Source: a virus. Taken from it: 64,000 nt of DNA. The stretch lies in the IMG/VR virus record IMGVR_UViG_3300042988_001343, positions 1-64,000 of that record, one strand, 5' to 3'. Numbering within the stretch: the stretch's first letter is position 1; each line of letters opens with the position of its first letter. The notes under the pieces were generated by a model. That model made no database searches. It worked only from the letters and a program-made list of their open reading frames with translations, and had not been told where the DNA came from. Below, piece after piece: positions 7,546 through 52,418 of the stretch. The position numbers and the translations under genes are program-made.

Positions 7546-7581
7546 ATGATGATTAACAAGACAACGAAAGAGGGAACCAAA

Positions 7582-8043
7582 ATGAAAAAAGGTGAAATGC
7601 TTAGTGCAGCCATTCTAATTGCAACAAATGCCCACGCCGGACAATATGACAAGGGTGGCAAACCATACATCCTGCATCCTCTGGCAGTTGCAGCTCTTTT
7701 GGATCCGGTATATCGGGACGAAGAACTCTACCAAGTAATCGCTATCCTTCATGATGTGATTGAAGATACCAAGGTTACTTACCAAGAACTACGTGATGCT
7801 GGTATTTCTGAACGTGCCATCGATGGTATTAAATCTTTGACAAAAATCCCAGGTCAAACCTTTGAGGAATACAAAGAGGGTGTATTCAGCAACATTGATG
7901 CAATGATTGTCAAGAAAGCTGACCTTACTCATAATACTGATATCCGTAGACTGAAGGGCGTTACTGAAAAAGATTTCGCTCGTATGGTCAAATATCAAAT
8001 GTTCTACTTTGAAATTACACAAAAATTGGCAGATAATGGCTAA
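7582..8043 (+). CDS. small alarmone hydrolase (SpoT/MESH1-like HD-domain (p)ppGpp pyrophosphohydrolase)
   Basis: HAGQYDKGGKPYILHPLAVA...ILHDVIEDT matches RelA/SpoT HD hydrolase motifs; start could be 7546. Confidence 0.7.
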   Translation: MKKGEMLSAAILIATNAHAGQYDKGGKPYILHPLAVAALLDPVYRDEELYQVIAILHDVIEDTKVTYQELRDAGISERAIDGIKSLTKIPGQTFEEYKEGVFSNIDAMIVKKADLTHNTDIRRLKGVTEKDFARMVKYQMFYFEITQKLADNG

Positions 8044-10406: not shown

Positions 10407-10460
10407 TTGACATTTAATTCTAGATGAGTTATAATTAACTCATTAATTGGGAGAACTGAA
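10407..10460 (+). promoter_or_regulatory. sigma70-type early promoter
   Basis: TTGACA 10407-10412, 17 nt, TATAAT 10430-10435. Confidence 0.6.
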
Positions 10461-10619
10461 ATGAAAGTCTATTGCGTAAAACAATACTTGCAGTATGAAT
10501 TTGACTCTGTTGTTGAAATCTTCCTGTCAGAGGAAAAGGCAAAGATTCGCTCAGATGAATTACAAAAACAAGATAAGTATGTTGAATGTTATGTAGAAGA
10601 ATTCGAGGTGCAAGAATGA
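10461..10619 (+). CDS. small hypothetical protein (52 aa)
   Basis: ORF with SD; stop overlaps next start (ATGA). Confidence 0.4.
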   Translation: MKVYCVKQYLQYEFDSVVEIFLSEEKAKIRSDELQKQDKYVECYVEEFEVQE

Positions 10620-11461
10620 TTACTCTTTTTGGTGGTAACAAAGACATTCCACTGAAATGGTGGACCTTCCCAGGAGGTGAACGCAATGTAAAAATTGAGG
10701 ATCCACTGGACATTGAACGATATCGATCATTCTCAGTAAAGTGCAATTTCACTTGTTCAGATGATTTGGTTGACATGATGTTGCTGGTTAATGCTATTCG
10801 TAATGTCAATAGAACAACCAAACTCAGACTTGTTATTCCATACTTCCCATTTGCTAGACAGGATCGAGTAATGACGAACGGTGAACCTTTTGCATTACAA
10901 GTTGTGGTATCTATGATCAAGTCGTGTAACTTTGACGAGGTAGAGACTTGGGATCCGCACAGCGATGTTCTTGCTGGTATGTTTGAAGCAGGTAATCTAT
11001 CTGTACGTCCACAGTGGGAGTTGATGCACAACTTGATTCTACAACAGAATCGTCATTCTCGGTATAATCTTGCACATTCAGCTCTTGTATCACCTGATGC
11101 TGGTGCTTTGAAAAAGATTTACAATCTTGCAAAACTGATCAATCTCCCAGTCATTGAAGCTGGTAAGAAGCGTGATGTATCAACTGGCGAGATTGTTGCA
11201 ACTACAATTAATTCACCTGGGTTGGATGAATTTGCTGTCCTCTATGTTATTGATGATATCTGCGATGGCGGTCGTACTTTTATTGAGCTTGCAAAAGCAA
11301 TTAAAGCGAAGGGGTTTAGCGGGGAACTTGTTCTCTGCGTTACACACGGAATCTTTAGCAAAGGGTTGACACCCTTAGAATGTTTTGATAAAATATACAC
11401 TGTAAACAATATTAACAACGCCGATCTGGCATGGTTTAATAAAAGGAATAAAAATGTTTAA
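10616..11461 (+). CDS. ribose-phosphate pyrophosphokinase (Prs) homolog; candidate ADPR-pyrophosphokinase (Adps-like)
   Basis: VIPYFPFARQDR Prs motif and VIDDICDGGRTF PRPP-binding motif. Confidence 0.7.
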   Translation: MITLFGGNKDIPLKWWTFPGGERNVKIEDPLDIERYRSFSVKCNFTCSDDLVDMMLLVNAIRNVNRTTKLRLVIPYFPFARQDRVMTNGEPFALQVVVSMIKSCNFDEVETWDPHSDVLAGMFEAGNLSVRPQWELMHNLILQQNRHSRYNLAHSALVSPDAGALKKIYNLAKLINLPVIEAGKKRDVSTGEIVATTINSPGLDEFAVLYVIDDICDGGRTFIELAKAIKAKGFSGELVLCVTHGIFSKGLTPLECFDKIYTVNNINNADLAWFNKRNKNV

Positions 11462-11513
11462 ACAGACTGCACTGACCTCCTGTGACTTCATCTACCTATA
11501 TTCCAGCCATTAG
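11454..11513 (+). pseudogene. duplicated, diverged 5' fragment of the nadV-like gene
   Basis: MFKQTALTSCDF... vs intact MFKQTALTSIDSYK at 12434; ~28/35 nt identical. Confidence 0.6.
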
Positions 11514-12294
11514 ACTTATAGTATAATTCATAAAGTTGTGGCATTACTCTTGATCTTGTAGATCCATTATTGATCCACACGGCAGTTTTTCTATCATAAA
11601 CTATATTGTGAATCTGTTTTAATTCATTTAATAAAATATCTTCTGGAGATAGTGGTTTCTTATTTTTGGGAATTCGTCCTTTTGATTCTGCAACTAATTC
11701 TCCTGAAATGTATCTTGGATCTTCTTTAGTTATTTGAAATTTATTGCCATTACTATCTTTTGCACAAAAATACCCTTTAGTATGACCGACATATTCACCA
11801 GATAAGTATGATGGATCATCACTATTAACTTTAAATTTATTTCCTAACTTATCTATTACTACTATTTTGCCCTTTGCTTTCTCTCCTATTTTTAATCTAC
11901 CTGATATAGGACAACCCTTTCCTCTCCTCCCAGCTGCTCTTTTGGCTACATGATCCTCTGATTGTTTTAAACCTGTTGCATCATGAAAGTAATCACCGTA
12001 TCCAGTAGATACATTTAAGAATCTTTTGTTTTTGCCTATTTTCATTCTATGTAATACTTTATGTTCCCAACTTAAAGCATCCTCTTTACATGTGAATTCC
12101 CTTCTGATTGAAATTACATCGGGCTCTCCGTGCATTTTTCTAAAGTTAGTAACATGCTTAGATGATGTAAAGTATACAGTCCATAAATCTTTTGGTGTTG
12201 TATTTTTGGCAAATCTAACTCCATAGTACCAAATGTCTAATTTTGACCATCCTATTAGATATGTAAATGGAGTATAAATATTTGTGCTGGACAT
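11488..12294 (-). CDS. GIY-YIG (Seg-like) homing endonuclease
   Basis: N-terminal GIY-YIG-like YTPFTYLIGW...YYGVRFAKN; C-terminal KDSNGNKFQ..DPRYISGEL repeats shared with ORF at 51446. Confidence 0.6.
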   Translation of the reverse strand: MSSTNIYTPFTYLIGWSKLDIWYYGVRFAKNTTPKDLWTVYFTSSKHVTNFRKMHGEPDVISIRREFTCKEDALSWEHKVLHRMKIGKNKRFLNVSTGYGDYFHDATGLKQSEDHVAKRAAGRRGKGCPISGRLKIGEKAKGKIVVIDKLGNKFKVNSDDPSYLSGEYVGHTKGYFCAKDSNGNKFQITKEDPRYISGELVAESKGRIPKNKKPLSPEDILLNELKQIHNIVYDRKTAVWINNGSTRSRVMPQLYELYYKSNGWNIGR

Positions 12295-12365
12295 AATTGG
12301 ATCCTTTCTGATTGTTGAAATGTCTAGAGCCCATGAATCTGCCAGGATTGCGATGGGCATTTCTA

Positions 12366-12433
12366 TTGACAATTAATTGCTAGTTGTCTATAATGTATTT
12401 ATGATAATTTGAATTGTGAAAAGGAAATATATT
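12366..12433 (+). promoter_or_regulatory. sigma70-type early promoter
   Basis: TTGACA 12366-12371, 17 nt, TATAAT 12389-12394. Confidence 0.6.
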
Positions 12434-13930
12434 ATGTTTAAACAGACTGCGTTAACCTCTATTGACTCTTACAAGCTTTCGCACGCCGAACAATATCCAG
12501 TTGGTATTACTAAGGTTTATTCTAACTTCACTCCTCGTTCTGAGTCTCACTTCAATGTCCCATCTGAATTTAAAGATGGTAAGATTGTTTGGTTTGGTCT
12601 ACAGATGTTCTTGCAAGAACTCAATGCAGTATGGAAAGAAACCTTTTTCGACCTTGCATTTGATGAAGTGGAAAAAGAAGCTCTAGAGTTTTATGCACCA
12701 TTTTGTGGTCCTAATGGATTCAATGTAAGTCGACTCGAAGAACTCCACAATCTCGGTTACCTTCCATTGGAAATCAAGGCCCTTCCTGAGGGAGTACGTG
12801 TACCGATTGGTGTACCGGTTCTTACCATCACCAATACTCTGCCACAATTTGCATGGTTGCCAAATTTCCTTGAGACTTGGATGTCTTGTGAACTTTGGAA
12901 ATCCTGTACCTCTGCAACTACTTCTTTCGTATATCGGAAGATTCTGAATAAGTACCAGAAACTCACTGGTGGCTTTGAAGGATTCGTGCAGTGGCAGTCA
13001 CACGATTTTTCTGTACGTGGTATGTCTGGTATCTATGATGCTGCTAAATCTGGTGCTGGTCATCTGTTGAGTTCTACCGGTACTGATAACCTACCAGCAG
13101 TAAAGTTGATCAATGACTGTTACCGTGGTAAGGAAACCTTTGTTGGCGGTTCTGTACCAGCAACTGAACACAGTGTGATGTGTGCAGGTGGTAAGGAATC
13201 AGAAGTTGAAACCTTCCGGCGACTGATTAAAACATATCCTTCTGGTGTTGTATCAATCGTATCTGATACTTGGGACTTCTGGAATGTTATTACCAACACT
13301 GCTCGTGAACTCAAAGATGAAATTCTTGCACGGGTTCCTGACCAGTTTGGTTTGGCAAAGGTTGTATTCCGGCCTGACTCAGGTGATCCTGTTAAGATTA
13401 TCTGTGGTGATCCTGAAGCTGAGGTTGGTTCTCCTGCTTTCAAAGGTGCTGTTGAATGCCTTGCTGAAATCTTTGGCACCACGACCAATGATAAAGGGTT
13501 TAAGACTCTGAATCAGCGAGTTGGTTTGATCTATGGAGACTCCATTACTCCACAACGTGCAGATGAAATCCTATATCGTCTAGCTGCAAAGGGATTTGCT
13601 TCTGATAACATCGTATTCGGTGTAGGTAGTTATACTTTCCAATACCAGACTCGTGATACTCTCGGGTTTGCAATGAAGGCAACCTATGTCGAAATTGAAG
13701 GTGTCGGACAGGCAATCTTCAAGGATCCAAAGACTGATTCTGGTACTAAGAAGTCCGCAAAGGGATTGTTGAGTGTTGGTAAGGATAACAATGATCAGTT
13801 TGTATTGGTAGATCGGTGTGAACAACATGTTGAAAAACTTGGATTCTTGCAGACTGTATACAAAGACGGTAAGATTCTTGTTAATGATTCATTTGCTGAA
13901 ATTCGTGCACGTTTGGAGACTTATCTATGA
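12434..13930 (+). CDS. nicotinamide phosphoribosyltransferase family protein (NadV/Nampt; candidate Namat)
   Basis: DSYKLSHAEQYP Nampt motif; ~500 aa. Confidence 0.75.
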   Translation: MFKQTALTSIDSYKLSHAEQYPVGITKVYSNFTPRSESHFNVPSEFKDGKIVWFGLQMFLQELNAVWKETFFDLAFDEVEKEALEFYAPFCGPNGFNVSRLEELHNLGYLPLEIKALPEGVRVPIGVPVLTITNTLPQFAWLPNFLETWMSCELWKSCTSATTSFVYRKILNKYQKLTGGFEGFVQWQSHDFSVRGMSGIYDAAKSGAGHLLSSTGTDNLPAVKLINDCYRGKETFVGGSVPATEHSVMCAGGKESEVETFRRLIKTYPSGVVSIVSDTWDFWNVITNTARELKDEILARVPDQFGLAKVVFRPDSGDPVKIICGDPEAEVGSPAFKGAVECLAEIFGTTTNDKGFKTLNQRVGLIYGDSITPQRADEILYRLAAKGFASDNIVFGVGSYTFQYQTRDTLGFAMKATYVEIEGVGQAIFKDPKTDSGTKKSAKGLLSVGKDNNDQFVLVDRCEQHVEKLGFLQTVYKDGKILVNDSFAEIRARLETYL

Positions 13931-14418
13931 AAGATGTAGAAATTGAGCGCAAGTGGCTGGTAAAAGAAAGGCCAGCCACTGATGGATTAGACAATGCTTT
14001 TATTACTCAGGGTTATGCAATTACTGCAAAGAAAGCATGTTTGAGAATTCGCACAGTTGAACAAGAAGGTAATTTTATTGGTATCATTACTGCAAAAGGT
14101 CCATCTGAAGTAGAGGGTGGAGTTTTTGAAAAAGAGATGGAAATTCCTTTGGAATTGGCCATGACTCTACTTAATGAACAATCACAAGTAATTACAAAGA
14201 CTCGGTACTATGTACCTAATCATAATAGTTACGATATTGAACTTGATGTATTTCATGGTCGATTAGCAGGACTAGTAGTTGCAGAGGTTGAATTTGATAA
14301 TCCAGAGGATTCATTAAATTTTATTCCTCCTACTTGGTTCGGTCGTGAGGTTACATCTGATAAACGATATAGTAATGCTAACCTTGTTACATTGATGGAA
14401 GTGCCGGAGGAATTATGA
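13927..14418 (+). CDS. CYTH-domain (triphosphate tunnel metalloenzyme) protein
   Basis: N-terminal EIERKWLV ExExK motif; ATGA coupling to the nadV-like gene. Confidence 0.65.
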   Translation: MKDVEIERKWLVKERPATDGLDNAFITQGYAITAKKACLRIRTVEQEGNFIGIITAKGPSEVEGGVFEKEMEIPLELAMTLLNEQSQVITKTRYYVPNHNSYDIELDVFHGRLAGLVVAEVEFDNPEDSLNFIPPTWFGREVTSDKRYSNANLVTLMEVPEEL

Positions 14419-14564
14419 TTGAAACCATGTTTGCGATTGTAATTTTCCTAATTCTACTTATGATTATATTATTTTCTTTTGGGTTGATTGGTGCAATGCT
14501 CAATACAATGTTTGATATTAACATCGGACAAACTATCAAAAATATGTTTAGGAAAGGATGTTAA

Positions 14565-15077
14565 GTGCGCAACATTTATTTGGATTTGGATGGAGTTTTT
14601 GCAGACTTTGAAGCTAAGTTTGAGGAACTGGTTGGATTTCCATACCATCAGGATCCAGAAAAGGCTTGGTCGATCCTAGATAAGGTCGACCACCTTTTCT
14701 TGCAGCTAGAACCACTACCTAGTGCCAAATTACTATTTGATCGTATCAATGACTATGCTACATGCAATGTAAAGATTCTGACAGCCCTACCTAGACTCAC
14801 TGGTAAATTGAATACAGCAGAAGCAGACAAGAAAGCATGGGTTGCAAAATATCTTTCTGATACTATCGAAGTCATCTGTACTGACGGTTGGAAACATAAA
14901 GTTGACTACTGTCGTCACGGTGACATTCTGGTTGATGATATGGAGAGAAATACAGAGGCTTGGTTCTATCATGGTGGGATTGGTATCCATCATTCAAGCA
15001 AGAGGCCTGATTTGACAATCAAGCAACTCATTGAATTAGAAGTTCTGTCAGAAGAAAAGATTGTACAATTCGGTTGA
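14565..15077 (+). CDS. 5'(3')-deoxyribonucleotidase-like HAD hydrolase (NT5C family)
   Basis: IYLDLDGVFADFE motif I near N-terminus; GTG start. Confidence 0.6.
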   Translation: MRNIYLDLDGVFADFEAKFEELVGFPYHQDPEKAWSILDKVDHLFLQLEPLPSAKLLFDRINDYATCNVKILTALPRLTGKLNTAEADKKAWVAKYLSDTIEVICTDGWKHKVDYCRHGDILVDDMERNTEAWFYHGGIGIHHSSKRPDLTIKQLIELEVLSEEKIVQFG

Positions 15078-15134
15078 CAATTAATTCTCCACTTGTTATA
15101 ATGAACTCAATCGATAAACAAGTGGAGAAACATC
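15074..15134 (+). promoter_or_regulatory. PeSL-like early promoter, perfect 12-bp inverted repeat
   Basis: TTGACA 15074-15079, TATAAT 15097-15102; tctccacttgtt/aacaagtggaga. Confidence 0.7.
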
Positions 15135-16831: not shown

Positions 16832-18265
16832 ATGAATCCGATCGTGAAGTCTATCCGTAATTTTACTTCTACCGCTAATGGTGCACCAACACTGAAGTCT
16901 ACAGGTTCATCCTGTGTTGACTTATTCAGCAAGGTTGGTTCTGCTCGTCAAGTAAATGAAAATGACATTGTCAATATGTTCTACAATGCAGCAATGGAAG
17001 ATATTGATGTAGCTACTCGCATTATGTTGTGGGCCCGAGATTGTCGTGGTGGTGCTGGCGAGCGTCGTGCATACCGTATCATGCTCAAGGAATTTGAAAC
17101 TTGGTGTATGGCAAATACAAACGGTATGGAAGTAATGCAGACTGTCGTTAACAAGACTGTAGAACTTGGTCGTTGGGACGATCTATTTGTACTTGATTCA
17201 TTCTTTGAGTTGGTTATCCAAAAGATTGCTGCTCAAATCAACACTGGTGACATTGGTCTACTTGCTAAGTGGCTTCCTCGTGAAAAGTCAGCCAACAAGG
17301 CTGTTGCATTCCGATTGATGAAGGGTCTTGGTATGACTCCTAAGCAGTACCGCAAATTCTGCTCTGGTGTTATCACAACTGAAACTCTGATGTGTGCTAA
17401 GAAGTGGGAAGATATCAATCTGTCTCACGTACCATCAGTTGCTTCAGCTCGGTACCAAAAGGCTTTCGAGAAGCAGCACCCAGGTTACTATGATTGGAAG
17501 TCTGGTTTGGAGTCTGGTGTTACTAAGGTTAATGTCTCAGTATCTTATCCTTATGATGTATACCGCACATTCAAGTCTGATGCTAGCCGAGAAGTAATTA
17601 ATGCTCAGTGGGATGCACTACCAAATTACATCAAGGAGGGTGTTTCAATTCTTCCAGTTGTTGATGTTTCTGGTTCAATGTCATGCCAAGCTAGTGGTGG
17701 TCTATCTTGTATGGATATCTCCATCTCTCTAGGTGCATACATTGCAAGTAAGAATACTGGTCCATTCGCTAAGGGTATGATTACCTTCCACGAAAATCCA
17801 ACCTTCTACTTCATGAAGTATGGCATCTATGATGAGTTTTCAAACATCAAGAATCTTCCATGGGGTGGTTCTACTAACTTTGAAGCAACATACAAGTTGA
17901 TTCTGAAGCATGCAAAGAGTGTAAATGCTTCACAAGAAGATATGCCAAAGTACTTGATTGTCTTGAGCGACATGCAGTTCAATATGGCCGAGGGTCGATA
18001 TGGACATGGTCATACAAACTTCGAAGCTATGGAAAAGACATTTGCAGAGGCAGGTTACAAGATGCCACAGATGATCTTCTGGAATTTGAATGCTGCTTAT
18101 GGTCGTGATGCTCAAGTAGGAGCAAATCAACCTGGTGTAAGCATGGTTTCTGGTTTCTCTCCTTCTATCCTGAAGGTTGTTCTATCAGGTGAAGAGTATA
18201 CTCCTATCCGTGCAATGATGGATACTGTTATGGTAGATCGTTACAAAGTTCTAGAAACAGATTGA
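16832..18265 (+). CDS. von Willebrand factor A-domain protein (DUF2828-like)
   Basis: MIDAS motif VVDVSGSMS and LIVLSDMQF in C-terminal half. Confidence 0.55.
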   Translation: MNPIVKSIRNFTSTANGAPTLKSTGSSCVDLFSKVGSARQVNENDIVNMFYNAAMEDIDVATRIMLWARDCRGGAGERRAYRIMLKEFETWCMANTNGMEVMQTVVNKTVELGRWDDLFVLDSFFELVIQKIAAQINTGDIGLLAKWLPREKSANKAVAFRLMKGLGMTPKQYRKFCSGVITTETLMCAKKWEDINLSHVPSVASARYQKAFEKQHPGYYDWKSGLESGVTKVNVSVSYPYDVYRTFKSDASREVINAQWDALPNYIKEGVSILPVVDVSGSMSCQASGGLSCMDISISLGAYIASKNTGPFAKGMITFHENPTFYFMKYGIYDEFSNIKNLPWGGSTNFEATYKLILKHAKSVNASQEDMPKYLIVLSDMQFNMAEGRYGHGHTNFEAMEKTFAEAGYKMPQMIFWNLNAAYGRDAQVGANQPGVSMVSGFSPSILKVVLSGEEYTPIRAMMDTVMVDRYKVLETD

Positions 18266-23674: not shown

Positions 23675-24454
23675 ATGAAACTGCGTATTATGTCGGACCT
23701 CCACTTGGAACATTATCGTGGAGTCCTTCCATTTCAATTTGAGGAAGAAAAAGATACCATTCTAGTATTGGCTGGTGATATATGTCCTTTCAGACTCGAT
23801 AGTATGTTATTCGATTTCCTAGAAATGGTTTCTCCTCTTTACTTCAAAGTATTAATTGTAGCAGGTAACCATGAGTACTACGGTTCATTCATGTCTGAGT
23901 TGGAGTCCATTAAAAAGACAGTAAAAGAAAATAAGCTGGATAATGTATACTACTTAGAAAACGAATGTCTACAAGTTGGTGACATTACTTTCTGTGGTGC
24001 TACTCTGTGGACTGACTTTGATAAAGGATCCCCTACTGCAATGATTGATGTTGAGTATGGACTCAACGATTTTAGACTTATTCGTATGTCAAGGGATAAT
24101 CCACGATTGTTAAAAGCAGAAGATACTTATGAGTTTCATAAAAAGTCCATTGCTTTTATGCATCATGTAACAGCACATCGGAAACCTACTGGTAAGGTTG
24201 TGTGGATTGTCCACCATGGAGTTAGTTACCAATCTGTTGCTCCGATGTTTGTTGGGAGTAATATAAATTGTGGATTTGTTTCAGAGCTTGGTTGGGACCT
24301 TACTGAAATGTCCGCAACACCAGATTTAATTATTCATGGACATGTCCATAATCATAATGACTACATGATTGGTGAAACTCGAGTTATCTCTAACCCACTA
24401 GGTTATCCACGAGAGAATGCATGCTTTGTGGTTGACAAATATGTGGAACTCTGA
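23675..24454 (+). CDS. calcineurin-like metallophosphoesterase
   Basis: IMSDLHLE...LVLAGDI...AGNHEY motifs. Confidence 0.65.
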   Translation: MKLRIMSDLHLEHYRGVLPFQFEEEKDTILVLAGDICPFRLDSMLFDFLEMVSPLYFKVLIVAGNHEYYGSFMSELESIKKTVKENKLDNVYYLENECLQVGDITFCGATLWTDFDKGSPTAMIDVEYGLNDFRLIRMSRDNPRLLKAEDTYEFHKKSIAFMHHVTAHRKPTGKVVWIVHHGVSYQSVAPMFVGSNINCGFVSELGWDLTEMSATPDLIIHGHVHNHNDYMIGETRVISNPLGYPRENACFVVDKYVEL

Positions 24455-24583: not shown

Positions 24584-25492
24584 ATGCCAGATAGATTAGA
24601 AAGACATACATTGCAATGTAAATGTTGCAATAAAGATATAATATGTAGAATTACTGAATTTAAAAAGTTTTGTTCTAGGAAATGCAAAAATGACTTTTCT
24701 AGAGGAAAAACTTTTGAAGAATTATATGGCGAGGAAGAAGCAATAAGAAGAAAATTATTGATGTCCGAAAATGCAAAAGGAGAAAATAATCCAAATTACA
24801 ATAATCCTTGGTCAGATGAACAGAGAAAAAATCAATCTGATATTATGCATAAAAGATATGAGGATCCTGAAGCAAGATATAGAGCAGGCACCTCAAATAG
24901 AGGCAAGAAATTCAGCAAAGAGAGAATAGAAAAGATGCATGGTCATAGGACTTTTGAGTCTTATAGTAGACCCATGCCTAATTATGCAAAAATAATAATC
25001 GGGGAAAAATCAAGTGCTAAATGGACTCCAGAATTCACCGCCGATTTTAGAAAAACTATGGAATCTAAAGGACATTGGATTCCTCTAGAAAATAAAACTG
25101 AGTATGACATATATGGTGCTGCCGGCAATTGGGTAGATAGGATGTGGGATCAACCAATCAAAGGTACTGGACTTATAGAAGAATATGGAATTTTTAATTC
25201 TATTTCAAACTCAAAAGGAGTTGTTAGGGATCACATCTTTAATCGCAGAGATGGATTAGCCATGGGAGTTTTCCCAGAGATCCTCAGACACCCAGCAAAC
25301 TGTCAAATAATTACTCACGCCGACAATGTAAAAAAGAGAAGTAACAGTGAAAAAACTCTTGACAGATTATTGCAAGATATATTAGAATGGAAATATGAAT
25401 GGTTCGAACAATCTCTAGCAGTAGAGAAAGTTAATATGTACCTAAACGGCTTTAGATGGATTAACGAATTTAGAAAGGAGGAATCTGAATGA
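24584..25492 (+). CDS. HNH homing endonuclease
   Basis: C-terminal RDHIFNRRDG...HPANCQIITHADNVKK HNH-like; N-terminal Cys cluster; possible late-type TATAAATG at ~24563. Confidence 0.55.
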   Translation: MPDRLERHTLQCKCCNKDIICRITEFKKFCSRKCKNDFSRGKTFEELYGEEEAIRRKLLMSENAKGENNPNYNNPWSDEQRKNQSDIMHKRYEDPEARYRAGTSNRGKKFSKERIEKMHGHRTFESYSRPMPNYAKIIIGEKSSAKWTPEFTADFRKTMESKGHWIPLENKTEYDIYGAAGNWVDRMWDQPIKGTGLIEEYGIFNSISNSKGVVRDHIFNRRDGLAMGVFPEILRHPANCQIITHADNVKKRSNSEKTLDRLLQDILEWKYEWFEQSLAVEKVNMYLNGFRWINEFRKEESE

Positions 25493-26086
25493 TTTATTTT
25501 ACTTCAGATTTGCATTTTCTCGCACACTAATATCATCAAGTACTCTCCTGGAACCCGCGGTGGTTTCACTGATGTAGCTGAGATGAATGAAACCATCATC
25601 CAGAATTGGAATGCTACGGTTGGTGTAGAAGATGAAGTTTGGATCCTTGGTGATGTGTCCTTCGATAAGCGTGGAGAACAAGTTCGGGATCATATTTCTA
25701 GACTTAAGGGTAAGAAATTTCTTGTCCTTGGTAACCATGATCATGTAATTAAGAAGCATGCTCTTGATCTCTTCGAGGAAGTATATGACTATCGAAAGCT
25801 CTATTATCAAGACAAGAACCACCCAAAAGGTCGATGGGAATTTATCCTCTGTCACTATCCTATCATTTCTTGGGACATGCGGCACCACGGATCAATTCAC
25901 TGTCATGGTCATTGCCATGGTACTTTGAAACTTCCAGCTGGTATGCAGACAAATATGTTCGATGTTGGAGTTGATAATGTAGAGTGGAATTTTGCACCTG
26001 TATCAGCAGAAGAACTTATCTCTCGTTGGGTTAACATCAAGTATATGAAATCACAAGACCATCATGATGTACGGGATCCAAGATGA
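25489..26086 (+). CDS. metallophosphoesterase, apparent +1 frameshift after codon 10 in a T-run (possible pseudogene or sequencing error)
   Basis: MIYFTSDLHF (frame 1) continues as SHTNIIKYSPGTRGGFTDVAEMNETIIQ...GDVSFD...GNHDH in frame 2 (ORF 25583-26086). Confidence 0.55.
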
Positions 26087-26640
26087 ACATTTTATTTCTA
26101 GATTTAGATGGACCAATGTTTTCAGAGCGAGGAAATGTGCTTCTTGGAAATAGAGGATGGATCCATCCTTCACTGGATGGATTTATTTCTCACTACTGGG
26201 AAATGGATCCTATTGCAGTTTCTATGTTAAATCGGCTTTATGAAATTCATCCATTTACTACTGTGCTGAGTTCTACTTGGAAAGAAAAACATACAAAAGA
26301 ACAGATTGTTGCTTTATTCTCAGTTAACAATCTAAATCTGCACCTACATGAAGAGTGGAAGACACCAAACATTGACGATAGGTATAGGAATACTCGAGGA
26401 TCGGAAATCGAAATGTGGTTGACTCATCATGTTGAAAAGTACAAGGTTGAGGATTACTTGATCTTGGATGATGCTTCATCCGGCGAAGAATTAGCTGACG
26501 AGTACAAATTGTCTAAGTTGAAGCTGGATCCAAAGAGTGTACATATAATCAACCTCTATGAAGGTATTGACTATTATACTTACCAAAATATGAAAGCCCG
26601 TGTTAATAAATGGGGCAAAGTATGTAGACCGTTGTGGTGA
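26083..26640 (+). CDS. HAD-superfamily hydrolase
   Basis: FLDLDGPMF motif I, VLSST motif II, LILDDAS motif IV. Confidence 0.5.
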   Translation: MNILFLDLDGPMFSERGNVLLGNRGWIHPSLDGFISHYWEMDPIAVSMLNRLYEIHPFTTVLSSTWKEKHTKEQIVALFSVNNLNLHLHEEWKTPNIDDRYRNTRGSEIEMWLTHHVEKYKVEDYLILDDASSGEELADEYKLSKLKLDPKSVHIINLYEGIDYYTYQNMKARVNKWGKVCRPLW

Positions 26641-37993: not shown

Positions 37994-38163
37994 AAGACCC
38001 AGTATTGATTCTAATGTCAGTATTTCTATCTTTTGTATTGGGTGGTGCTACTGGAGACTATTCCACGACACATCGAATCTATGAACGATGTATTGATAGA
38101 AATTCCACAATGCCTCACTATGAGCTTGTTAAGAAATGTGATCTGGAGGTAAAAGGAAAATGA
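37990..38163 (+). CDS. small secreted/membrane protein
   Basis: 57 aa with N-terminal hydrophobic segment. Confidence 0.3.
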   Translation: MKDPVLILMSVFLSFVLGGATGDYSTTHRIYERCIDRNSTMPHYELVKKCDLEVKGK

Positions 38164-39203
38164 GAAAACTAGCTACAATTCGTAAGATTGATGCAATCGA
38201 GCCCATTGAGGGTGCTGATGCCATTGAAGTTGCAACAGTCGGTGGTTGGAAAGTTGTTGTTAAGAAAAATGAGTACTCTATTGGAAGTAAAGTAATTTAC
38301 TGTGAAATCGACTCATGGATTCCAACAACCATTGCACCATTCTTGACAAAGGCCGGACACTTTCCTAAGACATATGGTGGAGTAGAAGGAGAAAAGCTAC
38401 GTACTATTAAACTTCGTGGGCAAATTTCCCAAGGGTTGATTCTATCTACAAAGACCATTCGTTACTCTGATGGACAAGAAATTGATCTTTGTGATAGTGA
38501 TGAAGAAGCAGATGTTACTGAAATTCTAGGTATTCAGAAGTGGGAGCCACCTGTTTCAGCACAACTTGCTGGTCTTGCTAAAGGTAACTTCCCATCTCTT
38601 GTTCCTAAGACTGACCAAGAGCGGGTTCAGAATTGTGCAAAACAGTTGGCAAAATGGGCTCGTGAAGGACTGACTTGGGAAGAGACTGAAAAACTAGAAG
38701 GTTCTTCCATGACCTGCTATCTACCAGAAGAAGGCGACTTCGAAGTTTGCTCGCGCAATCTTTCTCTAAAGCAAGATGAAAATAACTCATTCTGGAAAGT
38801 TGCTCTTGCAAATGCTATTGAAATTAACATGCGAAACCTTGACCTTCATGGACTTGCAATTCAGGGAGAATTGATTGGCGAAGGAATCCAGGGTAACATT
38901 TATGGACTAAAAGGACAAGAGTTCTACGTATATGACATCTACGATACTCGTGCTGGTTCTTACATTTGTGGAGAAGCTCGTACCGATATCATTAATGCAC
39001 TTGGTTTGAAGCACGTGCCGATTCTAGCCAGCCATACAATCATTGAAGAAATGAGTATGCAAGAACTTATCAACTGGGCAGATGGAAAGTCTAAGTTGAA
39101 TCCTAATGTTAATCGTGAAGGTATTGTATTCAAGTGCAACGAGGATCCTACTCAGAGTTTCAAAGCAATCAGTAACTTGTATTTGGCTAAACAGAAAGAT
39201 TGA
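38160..39203 (+). CDS. RNA ligase, Rnl5/DraRnl-like (N-terminal OB domain + nucleotidyltransferase)
   Basis: N-term KLATIRKIDAIEPIEGADAIEVATVGGWKVVVKK...KLRGQISQG; candidate motif I EKLEGS. Confidence 0.6.
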   Translation: MRKLATIRKIDAIEPIEGADAIEVATVGGWKVVVKKNEYSIGSKVIYCEIDSWIPTTIAPFLTKAGHFPKTYGGVEGEKLRTIKLRGQISQGLILSTKTIRYSDGQEIDLCDSDEEADVTEILGIQKWEPPVSAQLAGLAKGNFPSLVPKTDQERVQNCAKQLAKWAREGLTWEETEKLEGSSMTCYLPEEGDFEVCSRNLSLKQDENNSFWKVALANAIEINMRNLDLHGLAIQGELIGEGIQGNIYGLKGQEFYVYDIYDTRAGSYICGEARTDIINALGLKHVPILASHTIIEEMSMQELINWADGKSKLNPNVNREGIVFKCNEDPTQSFKAISNLYLAKQKD

Positions 39204-40644: not shown

Positions 40645-41559
40645 ATGAACTCAAATTTCAAAGACGAGCTGAAGAACTTCGTAGAAAATAATCCGAAGTT
40701 AGTTACCAAGAAAGCTACTTCCATCCCAGGAGTATATGTACTCAAATATACCAAGACTGTCTTTTTCAAAGGTCTATGGAATGAGTACTTGGAGGAATGT
40801 CGTGGTACTTTGATCGATGAAAACTACAATGTAGTTGCTCGCCCATTTACGAAAATCTACAATCGTGGTGAACGTAATACTGATATCCCTCGTGATACCA
40901 AGGTAATTGTTGCTCGAAAGATCAACGGTTACATGGGTTCTATTACCATGTACAATGATCAGATCATCTGTTCCACTACTGGTTCTGTAGATTCTGATTA
41001 TGCTAAGTTACTGTGGCAACATGTGGAACTTGTGGGCATCGACAAATTTATCAAGTTCTTCCAACGATATCGTAATACTACTCTTTGTTTTGAAGTGGTA
41101 GATCCTTCCGATCCTCACATCATTCGGGAAGGTTACGGTCTTTGGCTGCTTGGTATGCGAGATAACAAGTGGGAAGCTGGTGAATATTCTCGGCATGCTT
41201 ACTTCTCTGAAATGTCACTTGACTTGTTTGCAGAAGAACTTGGTGTAAAGCGGCCGCATCACTTTGTGTGTCAATTTGGTGACCTTGTAAAAGACCTACC
41301 AAATGTACAACATGAAGGATGGGTTGTTCACTCAGGTGAAACTACTTTGAAGATGAAGTCGCCATATTATAACATCAAGAAATTCTTTGCTCGTAAGTCG
41401 AATGTCGACGATGTTGTTGCTGATAATGCTAAGGAAAAATTCCCAGAAGAATACTATCCTTTGATTGATTATATTAAATCCAATCTTGTTACTTTTAATG
41501 AATTTAATGAACAAGAGCGGTTGGCTTATATTGAGAACTTTTTGCGAGGTAATGTATGA
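40645..41559 (+). CDS. RNA ligase 1 (T4 RnlA-like)
   Basis: LEECRGTLIDENYNVVARPFTKIYN resembles T4 Rnl1 ALECRGIMF...RPMEKFFNL; KINGYMGS lysine motif. Confidence 0.6.
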   Translation: MNSNFKDELKNFVENNPKLVTKKATSIPGVYVLKYTKTVFFKGLWNEYLEECRGTLIDENYNVVARPFTKIYNRGERNTDIPRDTKVIVARKINGYMGSITMYNDQIICSTTGSVDSDYAKLLWQHVELVGIDKFIKFFQRYRNTTLCFEVVDPSDPHIIREGYGLWLLGMRDNKWEAGEYSRHAYFSEMSLDLFAEELGVKRPHHFVCQFGDLVKDLPNVQHEGWVVHSGETTLKMKSPYYNIKKFFARKSNVDDVVADNAKEKFPEEYYPLIDYIKSNLVTFNEFNEQERLAYIENFLRGNV

Positions 41560-42103: not shown

Positions 42104-42541
42104 GTGATGGCTGAAATGGTTTTGATTCGAGGATTACCTGGTTCTGGTAAAACAACCAAGGGTTGGACACTCAAAAATACTGGAATTGTTGATTTTGTAA
42201 TTGCGGCAGATGATTGGTTTGAGGATGCAAATCGTAAATATAACTTCAATCCAAAATTCCTTCCAGAGGCTCATGCTTGGTGTCGATCAAGCACTGCAAA
42301 GTGTATCCTTGAAGGTTATAGAGTAGCTGTATGTAATACCTTTACCAAGATTGACGAGATGGTTCCTTACTTTAACCTAGCAGTTAAACTGGGTTGCAAG
42401 GTTCGTGTTATCGAAATGAAGACTCAGTATGGTTCTGTACATAATGTCCCAGAAGATAAAATGAAGCAAATGGCTGCTCGCTGGGAAGAGTTTGCAGGTT
42501 GTTGTGGTGAATTTGAACTTCCAGTGGAGATTATTAAGTGA
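42104..42541 (+). CDS. P-loop kinase resembling the 5'-kinase domain of polynucleotide kinase
   Basis: Walker A GLPGSGKTT; ~145 aa; adjacent to the RNA ligases. Confidence 0.45.
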   Translation: MMAEMVLIRGLPGSGKTTKGWTLKNTGIVDFVIAADDWFEDANRKYNFNPKFLPEAHAWCRSSTAKCILEGYRVAVCNTFTKIDEMVPYFNLAVKLGCKVRVIEMKTQYGSVHNVPEDKMKQMAARWEEFAGCCGEFELPVEIIK

Positions 42542-50598: not shown

Positions 50599-51474
50599 AT
50601 GAATCGTAAAAGCGCATTTAGTAATCTATTGGCTGCAGTGGAAAAGACAACTGCAGGTGGTTTCCAGAAGGATGACAAGGAAGGTTATTGGTATCCTGAA
50701 CGTGATAAGGCTGGTAATGCATTTGCAACCATCCGATTCCTACCATCTGGTAACCAAGACGGTGCACCATTCATTAAGATGCACAACCACGGCTTCCAAG
50801 GTCCTGGTGGTAAGTGGATGATTGAGAATTGCCCAACAACCATTGGTGATCAATGTCCAGTCTGTGAGGCAAACGGTACTCTCTGGTCTTCAGGTATCGA
50901 TTCTGACAAGGAAATTGCCCGTAAACGTAAGCGCAAGACTTCTTATGTTGCTAACATCGTAGTTCTACAAGACCAAAAGCATCCAGAGAATGAAGGTAAG
51001 GTTTTCCTATTCAAGTTCGGTCAAAAGATTTTTGACAAGATCGTTGATAAGATCAAGCCACAGTTTGAAGATGAGCAACCACTAAACCCATTTGATCCAT
51101 GGGAAGGTGCAGACTTCAAGTTGAAGATTCGCCAGGTAGATCAGTTTGCAAACTATGACAAATCTGAATTTGCATCCCAGTCTGAACTTGATTTGGACAT
51201 TGATGAACTTTTGACTAAGTGTGTTGATTTGGATACATTTACCGCACCAAGTAAATTTAAATCCTACGATGAACTCAAGAAAAAGTTCGATTCAGTAAAT
51301 GGTACATCTTCCTCTAAACCAAAGGTACAAGAATCAGAGGAAGATGATGACAGTGCTTTTATTGCTGCTCAGGTATCTAAGCAAAAATCCTCTAAACCTT
51401 CTCCAAAAGTAGAAGATGAGGAAGATGACGACGCATTGTCGTACTTTAAGAAATTAGCAGCTGAAGATGATTAA
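50599..51474 (+). CDS. 32: single-stranded DNA-binding protein gp32
   Basis: AFATIRFLPSGNQDGAPFIKMHNHGF...KTSYVANIVVLQDQKHPENEGKVFLFKFG closely matches T4 gp32; acidic C-tail. Confidence 0.85.
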   Translation: MNRKSAFSNLLAAVEKTTAGGFQKDDKEGYWYPERDKAGNAFATIRFLPSGNQDGAPFIKMHNHGFQGPGGKWMIENCPTTIGDQCPVCEANGTLWSSGIDSDKEIARKRKRKTSYVANIVVLQDQKHPENEGKVFLFKFGQKIFDKIVDKIKPQFEDEQPLNPFDPWEGADFKLKIRQVDQFANYDKSEFASQSELDLDIDELLTKCVDLDTFTAPSKFKSYDELKKKFDSVNGTSSSKPKVQESEEDDDSAFIAAQVSKQKSSKPSPKVEDEEDDDALSYFKKLAAEDD

Positions 51475-52321
51475 TACTTCGATTGTGTCTTGTTAGGGAA
51501 TTAGGATGTACTAACTTCTGACAAGTTTCACACCAAACTTTAGGGATATTTGTAATAGTATCCCTAATTTTTTGTCTGCATGCTTCTGACTTTTGTTTTC
51601 CGCTTTGTATATGTTTTAATTCACCAGAAACGTATCTAGGATCCTCTACTGATACATTGAATATATTACCGTTTGAATCTTTTACTGTTACTTGCCCGGT
51701 ACTAGGAGTTCCTTTATATTTGTGTCGATTTTCTTTATATTCTTGAGGAGTAATTTGTACTTGATTTCCATCTAAGTCGATTGCAGTCAATATGTTAGAA
51801 TTAACATGAGTATACTCTGAGGAACAATATTCATCTTGAGTTACTTTTATTTTATTTCCATGCTTATCATACACTAACACTAAACCTGCATTTATTGACT
51901 TCAAAGTACCATCTGAATCATAAACTTCTTTATCGACGTGATACCTATTACCATTTTTATCTATTACAGTTACTTTTCCTCTATTATCGACATAGCTATT
52001 GAGTCCATCATAATAACGTCTGTTTAATAGGTTTTCATTTCCCCAACACTCTTTAATCAACTCTTGTTCTACTCTATATGCAGCAATCGATCTTTCTTTC
52101 CAATTTCCTATAGGAAACTCTGCAACAATCATATAGTCAAAATTTTCAAAGCCTATTGACTTTACTATTTCTGAAGAAGTCTGATAAATTGGTAAATCTA
52201 AGTCTGGGGATTTATCCATGTGTGAAGTATATCTGGATCCAAAATAAAATTGGCCAGTTACTTTGTGTACTAACTTATAAACATATGGATTAATATTTGA
52301 ATAAATATTTGTGCTGGACAT
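51446..52321 (-). CDS. GIY-YIG (Seg-like) homing endonuclease
   Basis: YVYKLVHKVTGQFYFGS GIY-YIG; C-terminal D..GN..V repeats; 3' end overlaps gene 32 by ~29 nt. Confidence 0.7.
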   Translation of the reverse strand: MSSTNIYSNINPYVYKLVHKVTGQFYFGSRYTSHMDKSPDLDLPIYQTSSEIVKSIGFENFDYMIVAEFPIGNWKERSIAAYRVEQELIKECWGNENLLNRRYYDGLNSYVDNRGKVTVIDKNGNRYHVDKEVYDSDGTLKSINAGLVLVYDKHGNKIKVTQDEYCSSEYTHVNSNILTAIDLDGNQVQITPQEYKENRHKYKGTPSTGQVTVKDSNGNIFNVSVEDPRYVSGELKHIQSGKQKSEACRQKIRDTITNIPKVWCETCQKLVHPNSLTRHNRSINHLQLLIS

Positions 52322-52418
52322 AATTGTCTCCTTGATGATTGTTGAAATGTCTAGAGCCAATAGGTGGTGGTACACCGTGATTGGCATAATTATTTATCTT
52401 TTTATGGTTTTAGGAATA

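Follow-up and report, generated by a model that had tools for sequence, protein, structure and literature searches.

Phage pathways that restore NAD+ are the closest described counterparts of the locus analyzed here. NARP1 is defined by an Adps-clade homolog of Prs with a Namat homolog nearby, within ten genes (Osterman et al. 2024; bioRxiv 10.1101/2024.02.11.579819). NARP1 has been reported in 859 phage genomes, and described examples come from SPbetaL1 (Bacillus), Bas63 (E. coli) and ICP1 (Vibrio; NrsAB). NARP1-AP of Vibrio phage Gary has the gene order Adps-Adpp-Namat, where Adpp is a Macro-domain phosphatase of ADPR-1''P (bioRxiv 10.64898/2026.01.28.702374). NARP2 of Vibrio phage KVP40 consists of a Nampt and an NMNAT/Nudix protein. 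Here we describe a NARP1-like locus in 64,000 nt of DNA from an uncultured virus (positions 1 to 64,000 of IMG/VR record IMGVR_UViG_3300042988_001343), called the window below; every negative result given for the window refers to these 64 kb.

With a probability of about 0.65 for the reading as a whole, the locus is best explained as a predicted NARP1 NAD+ reconstitution pair, Adps plus Namat, that has been split by a homing endonuclease. By homology to characterized enzymes, Adps would use ADP-ribose (ADPR) and ATP to form ADPR pyrophosphate (ADPR-PP), which Namat would join with nicotinamide to give NAD+ and pyrophosphate (PPi). The pair would thereby reverse NAD+ cleavage by SIR2-, TIR- and SEFIR-type defenses. 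Two further genes downstream of namat, encoding a CYTH protein and an NT5C-type nucleotidase, are best read as independent nucleotide-phosphohydrolase neighbors and not as dedicated NARP1 components.

The window shares with SPbetaL1, Bas63 and ICP1 the same two genes in the same order, the Adps-type truncations, the pyrophosphate (PP) loop, the catalytic Lys, the Namat clamp helix and the catalytic core. It differs in that an opposite-strand endonuclease cassette parts the pair, each gene has its own perfect promoter, and the selectivity-clamp loop (SCL) of Namat is longer. As in NARP1-AP, the core genes and phosphohydrolase genes share one transcription unit, but the window encodes no Macro protein, its HAD-family NT5C and its CYTH protein are both non-homologous to Adpp, and the comparative evidence for a functional link is weak. 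NARP2 likewise has a Nampt-homologous enzyme and the goal of restoring NAD+; the window differs from it in having the Namat clamp motif, an adjacent Adps and no NMNAT.

Identity of the Adps and Namat pair

The 281-aa Prs-like protein matches the Pfam families Pribosyltran_N/Pribosyltran and contains both motifs singled out in the original prediction, PYFPFARQDR and DDICDGGRT. We mapped its residues by alignment to ICP1 Adps, SPbetaL1 Adps and E. coli Prs. ICP1 Adps was taken from its genome; phmmer detected no Adps structure in the PDB. Hallmarks of Adps are loss of the a11-a12 module, a conserved PP loop, a catalytic Lys in a beta-hairpin (ICP1 K185) and the acceptor residues R87, H121, D161, D212 and D213 (PMC13586617). 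The 281-aa protein shows every hallmark of Adps remodeling that was tested. It lacks the N-terminal segment of Prs, ends before the C-terminal a11-a12 region and keeps ICP1 F18, R87, H121, D161, K185, D212 and D213. Its PP loop reads DDICDGGRTF, compared with DDICDGAASF in ICP1 Adps and DDMIDTGGTL in E. coli Prs.

Profile models place the protein in the same group. It fails all canonical Prs equivalog models, scoring 61–101 bits against cut-offs of 296–536; the verified ICP1 Adps fails them likewise, and E. coli Prs reaches 533 bits on the subfamily model PRK01259. Its phrog_619 score (247 bits) equals that of SPbetaL1 Adps and exceeds that of E. coli Prs. Its identity is 29% to SPbetaL1 Adps and 32% to ICP1 Adps. 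The comparison with Prs and Adps that had been proposed as a check, run with profile models and alignment, thus comes out on the Adps side.

For the 498-aa Nampt-like protein, Pfam reports NAPRTase and NAMPT_N, and the gene carries DSYKLSHAEQYP, the stretch quoted in the original prediction. Its best PDB matches are structures of SPbetaL1 Namat (9W5X/9W5W, 469 bits), compared with 235 bits for human NAMPT. It scores 441 and 386 bits to verified Namats versus about 225 to the Nampts of NARP2, and is 49% identical to SPbetaL1 Namat and 46% to ICP1 Namat. The selectivity-clamp helix of Namat, an adenine clamp, has the pattern GS-X-phi-X-phi-X-phi-TRD with aromatic X (PMC12774641). The protein has GSYTFQYQTRD here, which is of Namat type: F392 is replaced by Y, and Y396, T398, R399 and D400 are conserved. 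Two Nampts encoded beside NMNAT-Nudix genes in NARP2 loci (L158:7995-12460 and L104:2504-7011) have GGGLLQQVNRD and GGALLQQVDRD, which are not of Namat type. All SPbetaL1 catalytic core residues (D13, Y15, F189, R192, D215, R306 and D308) are identical in the 498-aa protein. A second proposed check, of NadV against Namat, falls on the Namat side by PDB scores and motifs, and with it the earlier claim of a NARP1-type pair gains support.

Some Namat homologs carry extra in-frame sequence and reach 544–597 aa, versus 498 aa here (L034:7977-9740, L037:7944-9737, L025:5970-7604, L107:6342-7991, L110:1935-3647, L118:10371-12077 and L179:9293-11002). In L034 and L037 the insertion is ~80 aa near residue 335–340, too short for a typical intein.

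Gene context agrees with the protein evidence. In the window, namat starts 973 bp downstream of adps with one gene between them, within the ten-gene distance of the NARP1 definition. Our comparison set consisted of 160 related NARP1 loci, 80 from IMG/VR and the 80 closest metagenomic ones; an Adps homolog flanks the Namat homolog in 148 of them.

The pair could instead serve nicotinamide salvage dependent on phosphoribosyl pyrophosphate (PRPP), in a NARP2-like or bacterial prs-nadV-like manner: the Prs-like protein would make PRPP, the Nampt-like protein nicotinamide mononucleotide (NMN), and an NMNAT encoded elsewhere or by the host NAD+. Such a pathway would fit the best match in the 'phage' collection, an Acinetobacter chromosomal prs-nadV-nrtR operon (56% identity), the PRPP activity that Namat enzymes retain in vitro (PMC12774641), and the broad TIGR01251 model, which the 281-aa protein only just reaches (113.4 bits at a cut-off of 113). 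However, the Acinetobacter NadV itself has the Namat motif (GSFTYNYLTRD) that true NARP2 Nampts lack, and the 281-aa protein has the Adps-specific truncations and the Adps PP loop. No NMNAT homolog or motif was found in the window. Furthermore, 97% of Adps-clade genes have a Namat homolog in the immediate vicinity, and the published survey found no phage with both NARP1 and NARP2 (bioRxiv 10.1101/2024.02.11.579819). We consider salvage very unlikely.

The Acinetobacter entry (L005, CAKLQF020000015.1, named 'Acinetobacter phage MD-2021a') is a bacterial chromosome with an iron ABC transporter and AraC genes next to prs-nadV-nrtR. The clamp motif of its NadV fits reports of bacterial NARP1 homologs.

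Homing endonuclease cassette at the adps/namat junction

In relatives, adps and namat lie 0–80 bp apart, and the namat ATG often overlaps the adps stop codon. In the window the stop codon of adps is overlapped by ATGTTTAAACAGACTGCACTGACCTCCTGTGACT (11454-11487), which encodes MFKQTALTSCD, the namat start of relatives. This 34-nt stretch is repeated directly at the live namat start (12434-12467), with 82% identity and a spacing of 980 bp. The 980-bp segment between the repeats holds an opposite-strand gene for a 268-aa protein and the perfect promoter of namat.

The 268-aa protein had been predicted to be a Seg endonuclease, and it is probably a GIY-YIG-type (Seg-like) enzyme. Pfam and NCBIfam give no match for it, but it has homology over its N-terminal half to phage proteins with a GIY-YIG/SEG-like annotation. 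We looked for the GIY-YIG signature Tyr...Tyr-Gly...Arg...Glu...Asn and found Y12, Y24-G25, E77 and N94 invariant in the family. For an AF2 model of residues 1–150 (pLDDT 74), the three best-ranked PDB structures are GIY-YIG domains of I-TevI and UvrC (TM 0.62 by target length; E = 0.36, not significant).

The protein shares with T4 Seg and I-TevI a predicted GIY-YIG-like N-terminal domain and NUMOD3-type C-terminal DNA-binding motifs, and its gene shares the intergenic site, sporadic distribution and co-converted flank. It differs in being missed by the Pfam GIY-YIG model and in a fold match that ranks first yet is not significant. The window also encodes a paralog (51446-52387, minus strand; 26% identity, E 4e-9) and a NUMOD3-containing, endonuclease-like open reading frame (ORF; 24584-25492, plus strand).

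Among the related loci the gene is sporadic but its site is fixed. A 52%-identical endonuclease gene occupies the same adps/namat junction in L303 (SESG01031042.1, 6102-6950), and the other 158 related loci yielded no homolog. An in-frame stop codon in the L303 copy points to decay of the homing endonuclease gene or to an error in sequencing. The scattered occurrence at one site, together with the sign of co-conversion left by the 34-nt repeat, marks the segment as mobile. The evidence for an insertion is solid: a free-standing homing endonuclease cassette entered namat within its first 34 nt, and the 5' end of the gene was restored. Ancestrally, the genes of this clade would have been arranged as adps-namat, the ATG of namat overlapping the stop codon of adps and an NT5C-type gene often coming next. 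A first invasion would have placed a 980-bp cassette, with the endonuclease gene, a promoter and a new 5' end for namat, within those 34 nt, leaving the vestigial namat start behind.

CYTH and NT5C genes downstream of namat

The CYTH and NT5C genes lie in one unit with namat. No perfect promoter occurs between 12366 and 15074. An ATGA holds both the stop of namat and the start of CYTH, an overlap also links the CYTH stop to the start of a 49-codon ORF, and the stop of this ORF abuts the GTG start of NT5C. Translational coupling of CYTH to the Nampt-like gene, as originally predicted, is probable. Because promoters bracket the unit and stops and starts overlap or abut, namat, CYTH, the 49-codon ORF and NT5C are probably co-transcribed as one early transcript with coupled translation.

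The 163-aa CYTH protein scores 21 bits against Pfam CYTH, just below the cut-off of 23.2. We kept the assignment because the protein matches the NeuTTM structures 2FBL/3TYP over its full length (E 7e-18). The residues sought were ExExK and the NeuTTM tunnel residues Y28, R39, R41, K52, K85, R87, E114 and E116, and the set is complete: E5, E7 and K9 (ExExK), Y30, R40, R42, K57, K91, R93, E105, D107, E120 and E122 are invariant among phage CYTH homologs. As judged from these residues, the protein should be an active triphosphate-tunnel hydrolase. Its nearest solved and characterized relative, NeuTTM (Nitrosomonas europaea NE1496), is a full-length homolog with the same ExExK and tunnel Arg, Lys and Glu residues; NeuTTM is an inorganic triphosphatase. 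The window protein differs from it in its modest identity and its phage context.

The original prediction suggested that CYTH could be an unreported extra component of NARP1. In this extended pathway, CYTH, with or without NT5C, would act on ADPR-PP, pull the reaction by removing PPi or triphosphate (PPPi), or destroy a nucleotide immune signal. In its favor are the translational coupling, the shared promoter-bounded unit and the complete catalytic set of CYTH. Accessory precedents also exist in the Macro protein Adpp (bioRxiv 10.64898/2026.01.28.702374) and RyDEP (PMC13232231). Moreover, CYTH, adps and namat form a tight cluster in L179, and in L158 CYTH lies 0.7 kb upstream of the NMNAT-Nudix/Nampt pair; these two phages are unrelated.

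The proposed survey of CYTH co-occurrence with Adps and Namat points the other way. CYTH occurs within 8 kb of only one of the 160 related loci (1/80 in IMG/VR, 0/80 in metagenomes), and in this case (L034) it lies 4 kb upstream, on the other side of NARP1. Conversely, none of nine reference-phage CYTH loci has NARP genes within 6–10 kb. An alignment-based search was used to find CYTH in IMG/VR, where a single-sequence pattern found nothing. In this CYTH-centered sample, 3 of 80 loci have a Namat/Nampt gene nearby, compared with 7 of 68 for a control neighbor gene (SprT-like; Fisher p = 0.19, in the direction contrary to enrichment). The closest phage CYTH homolog (48% identity) adjoins an NT5C gene and has no Prs or Nampt gene within 10 kb, and the next three closest homologs on long contigs lie among bacterial housekeeping genes.

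Namat and CYTH are not joined in any INPHARED record. To probe adjacency, we searched INPHARED with an artificial Namat+CYTH+NT5C concatenate, which matched 2,124 records at 2,214 places; no match covers 80% of the query, and the best-ranked 60 records cover at most 63%. In the literature we found no paper linking CYTH or a nucleotidase to NARP1, and the supplements of the NARP1-AP preprint (bioRxiv 10.64898/2026.01.28.702374) do not mention CYTH, NT5C or HAD.

Inorganic triphosphate, the NeuTTM substrate, is also not part of NARP1 chemistry. Dedicated extension of the pathway by CYTH is thus unlikely and the earlier claim is not supported. In the three closest relatives, namat and NT5C are separated by about 10–25 bp; in the window CYTH and the 49-codon ORF fill this gap. 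We looked for flanking repeats at this insertion and found none convincing. A second invasion would have brought the NeuTTM-like CYTH gene and the 49-codon membrane ORF between namat and NT5C.

The nucleotidase gene predicted at this position is confirmed by Pfam (PF06941, 28.1 bits; gathering threshold 24.8) and phrog_2643 (95 bits). Its product has the HAD motif I DLDGVFADF and weak matches to mdN/cdN structures. Residues D7, D9, F15 and F45 are invariant in an alignment of three phage NT5C proteins; we take the two Phe to be the base-stacking pair of human mdN.

Unlike CYTH, NT5C recurs next to namat in the closest part of the family. It lies directly 3' of namat in the three closest relatives (Namat identity 81, 81 and 78%) and in 7 of 23 distinct loci with at least 60% identity. 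Other phosphatases occur nearby in the same clade, Macro-like in 3 of 23 loci and DSP-like in 1 of 23. The gene after namat is a Macro-like protein in L026 (9989-10447; phrog_335 'phosphatase', 132 bits) and a weakly DSP/PTP-like protein in L020 (3623-4102). No ORF of the unit in the window has a Macro domain, and the window has no homolog of the L026 Macro-like protein.

This pattern could mean that NT5C is a non-Macro counterpart of Adpp, an associated phosphatase that would convert ADPR-1''P or 2'-phospho-ADPR to ADPR for use by Adps. The frequent position after namat agrees with this idea, as does the fact that no NT5C locus also has the Macro-like or DSP-like phosphatase found in the same neighborhood elsewhere. 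The adps-namat-NT5C trio is also held together while its flanks are shuffled. However, two contigs with ~91% identity in aligned flanking DNA, L367 and L368 (Logan SRR11673989_1383257 and SRR21146042_1131), differ by a clean 2.36-kb indel that consists of exactly adps and namat, between thyX and NT5C. Because NT5C stays in L368 without adps and namat, it is a backbone gene and adps-namat is a two-gene cassette.

Sampling centered on NT5C gives 8 of 36 loci versus 7 of 68 for the control (p = 0.14, not significant), and four of five close homologs on long contigs have no intact NARP1 within 5 kb. Motif I (DxDGVxADF) and the two invariant Phe, whose pairing in mdN we presume, fit a nucleoside 5'-monophosphatase. 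NT5C also occurs beside NARP2, whose starting substrate is not ADPR. An Adpp-like role of NT5C is accordingly improbable. An obligate three-gene module adps-namat-NT5C was rejected on the basis of the NT5C-centered look-ups and the L367/L368 indel. NT5C is an ancestral downstream neighbor in the clade, yet independent of NARP1.

Two further features of these neighborhoods were observed. Behind NT5C in L366 (5001-6457) come a GIY-YIG-like gene on the opposite strand and then a piece of namat that codes for the C-terminal end (aa 416–498), an arrangement that resembles what is left of a NARP1 pair; a nearby DUF2828/DUF7788 gene is apparently split. A gene for a LigA-type NAD+-dependent DNA ligase lies about 0.2–0.8 kb 3' of adps-namat-NT5C in L022 (7276-8226), L107 (8659-9612) and L367 (5808-6758), and about 2.4 kb 3' of NT5C in L368 (7849-8799), which has no adps-namat. 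The ligases were called by Pfam domains in L367 and L368 only and by N-terminal sequence in L022 and L107. They hint that phage demand for NAD+ in ligation may be one reason for NARP1.

The most likely role of NT5C, by analogy with T5 Dmp, is dephosphorylation of deoxynucleoside monophosphates (dNMPs). Dmp, a dNMP phosphatase, is an anti-Kongming factor (bioRxiv 10.1101/2024.12.20.629578), and the Metis system senses m6dAMP (bioRxiv 10.1101/2025.11.05.686725). Like Dmp, NT5C is a phage early-gene phosphatase with predicted activity on dNMPs and a possible link to NAD+-depleting immunity. The two differ in family (phrog_2643 for NT5C and phrog_415 for Dmp) and show only a faint superfamily-level match. 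Homology of NT5C to Dmp was considered and rejected, as there is no significant similarity. On this analogy, dNMP activity of NT5C could incidentally blunt NAD+-depleting systems triggered by dNMP-derived signals.

A broader version would treat namat-CYTH-(49 aa)-NT5C as a combined counter-measure against NAD+-depleting immunity. NARP1 would repair the canonical cleavage, and CYTH and NT5C would remove triggers such as dITP and its precursor dAMP (Kongming) or m6dAMP (Metis), or one of them would feed or edit ADPR derivatives for Adps. Metis cleaves NAD+ to NMN and AMP, from which NARP1 cannot rebuild it. We regard such a combination as doubtful.

Several observations weigh against a NARP1 pair with independent neighbors. 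The substrate specificity of Adps and Namat is predicted from motifs. Adps F92 is M in the 281-aa protein, and S in the verified SPbetaL1 Adps. In Namat the SCL supplies an Arg, Lys or Tyr stacking residue; in the 498-aa protein this loop, which varies in the family, is longer (TPRSESHFNVPSEFKDGK) and has Ser aligned to SPbetaL1 R40. The genome beyond the window could hold an NMNAT. As to the neighbors, CYTH sits close to NARP genes in L179 and L158, NT5C lies 1.6 kb upstream of the NARP2 pair in L104, and the slot after namat in the clade is often filled by a phosphohydrolase (NT5C 7, Macro-like 3 and DSP-like 1 of 23). The samples are small, and their loci are related by descent. The NT5C of L104, 57% identical to that of the window, was the best match in the IMG/VR search.

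Genomic setting and significance

The ORF listing bears out the five genes of the original prediction (Prs-like, endonuclease, Nampt-like, CYTH and NT5C) with their coordinates, and its family assignments hold by Pfam and by PHROGs, where phrog_619, phrog_448, phrog_6660 and phrog_2643 agree with the Pfam families. Beyond these genes, the locus contains the 49-codon ORF, a DUF7336 ORF and the vestigial namat start (Table 1). The start codons match those in relatives (MIxLFGGN.., MFKQTALTS..). The locus recurs identically on an independent Logan contig, where the genes, including the DUF7336 ORF, were called in the same way.

Table 1. Genes, promoters and repeat at the adps-namat locus (window positions)
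Feature	Position	Strand	Basis or remark
Perfect sigma-70 consensus promoter (TTGACA-N17-TATAAT)	10407..10435	+	Heads the DUF7336-adps unit
DUF7336 ORF, 52 aa	10461..10619	+	PF24024 23.8 bits, just below cut-off; stop overlaps adps start
adps, Prs-like, 281 aa	10616..11461	+	ICP1 Adps alignment, Prs models, phrog_619
Vestigial namat 5' end, left copy of 34-nt direct repeat	11454..11487	+	Overlaps adps stop
Seg-like GIY-YIG-type homing endonuclease gene, 268 aa	11488..12294	-	Free-standing; NUMOD3-like C-terminal motifs
Perfect sigma-70 consensus promoter	12366..12394	+	Heads namat-CYTH-49aa-NT5C
namat, Nampt-like, 498 aa	12434..13930	+	SPbetaL1 Namat PDB match; clamp-helix motif
CYTH / triphosphate-tunnel metalloenzyme, NeuTTM-like, 163 aa	13927..14418	+	2FBL/3TYP; phrog_6660
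49-codon hydrophobic (membrane) ORF	14415..14564	+	Logan contig gene call; weak YqiJ_N match
NT5C-type HAD phosphatase, 5'(3')-deoxyribonucleotidase family, 170 aa, GTG start	14565..15077	+	PF06941, phrog_2643
Next perfect promoter	15074..15102	+	End of the namat-CYTH-49aa-NT5C transcription unit

Perfect TTGACA-N17-TATAAT sites occur 17 times in the window, all on the plus strand, where 0.07 are expected by chance. They span positions 491 to 47740 (e.g. 9806, 10407, 12366 and 15074) and have in common the extended motif TTGACAATTAATTCTCC..TTGTTATAAT. These sites are a phage early-promoter family that delimits small transcription cassettes. The relatives L026, L028, L037 and L303 have a promoter at the place equivalent to 12366.

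The source is an uncultured, distantly T4-like/Ackermann-like myovirus, with the locus in its early region. The window encodes gp32, a gp5-like baseplate hub, DNA and RNA ligases and many early genes, and has no tRNA genes. No cultured phage is closely related to it: its tail protein reaches at most 33% identity to any, and a megablast search with the locus in 50,697 phage records gave no match.

Nucleic-acid-repair and alarmone-type enzymes are numerous in the early region: HD_4 (SpoT-like hydrolase), Ro/TROVE-like DUF2828-DUF7788, a metallophosphatase, HAD_SAK_2, two RNA ligases and an AAA_33 kinase (7546-8043, 16832-18265, 23675-24454, 26083-26640, 38160-39203, 40645-41559 and 42104-42541). 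This set suggests a broad counter-defense and repair repertoire.

The locus adds one fairly divergent predicted NARP1, from an uncultured myovirus, to a known pathway. It is a natural example of a homing endonuclease cassette at the adps/namat junction with a regenerated namat 5' end. Judging by the clean indel between 91%-identical phages, adps and namat behave as one separate two-gene cassette. Action of CYTH or NT5C on ADPR derivatives or on signals related to NADases, which the comparative evidence disfavors, would extend the known NAD+-centered counter-defenses. If the combined counter-measure were real, the scattered CYTH and NT5C genes beside NARP1 and NARP2 in the unrelated L179, L158 and L104 would form a real functional guild. 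The phosphohydrolases that recur by namat in one clade (NT5C-type HAD, Macro-like, DSP-like and, rarely, CYTH) are candidate accessory or parallel anti-defense enzymes.

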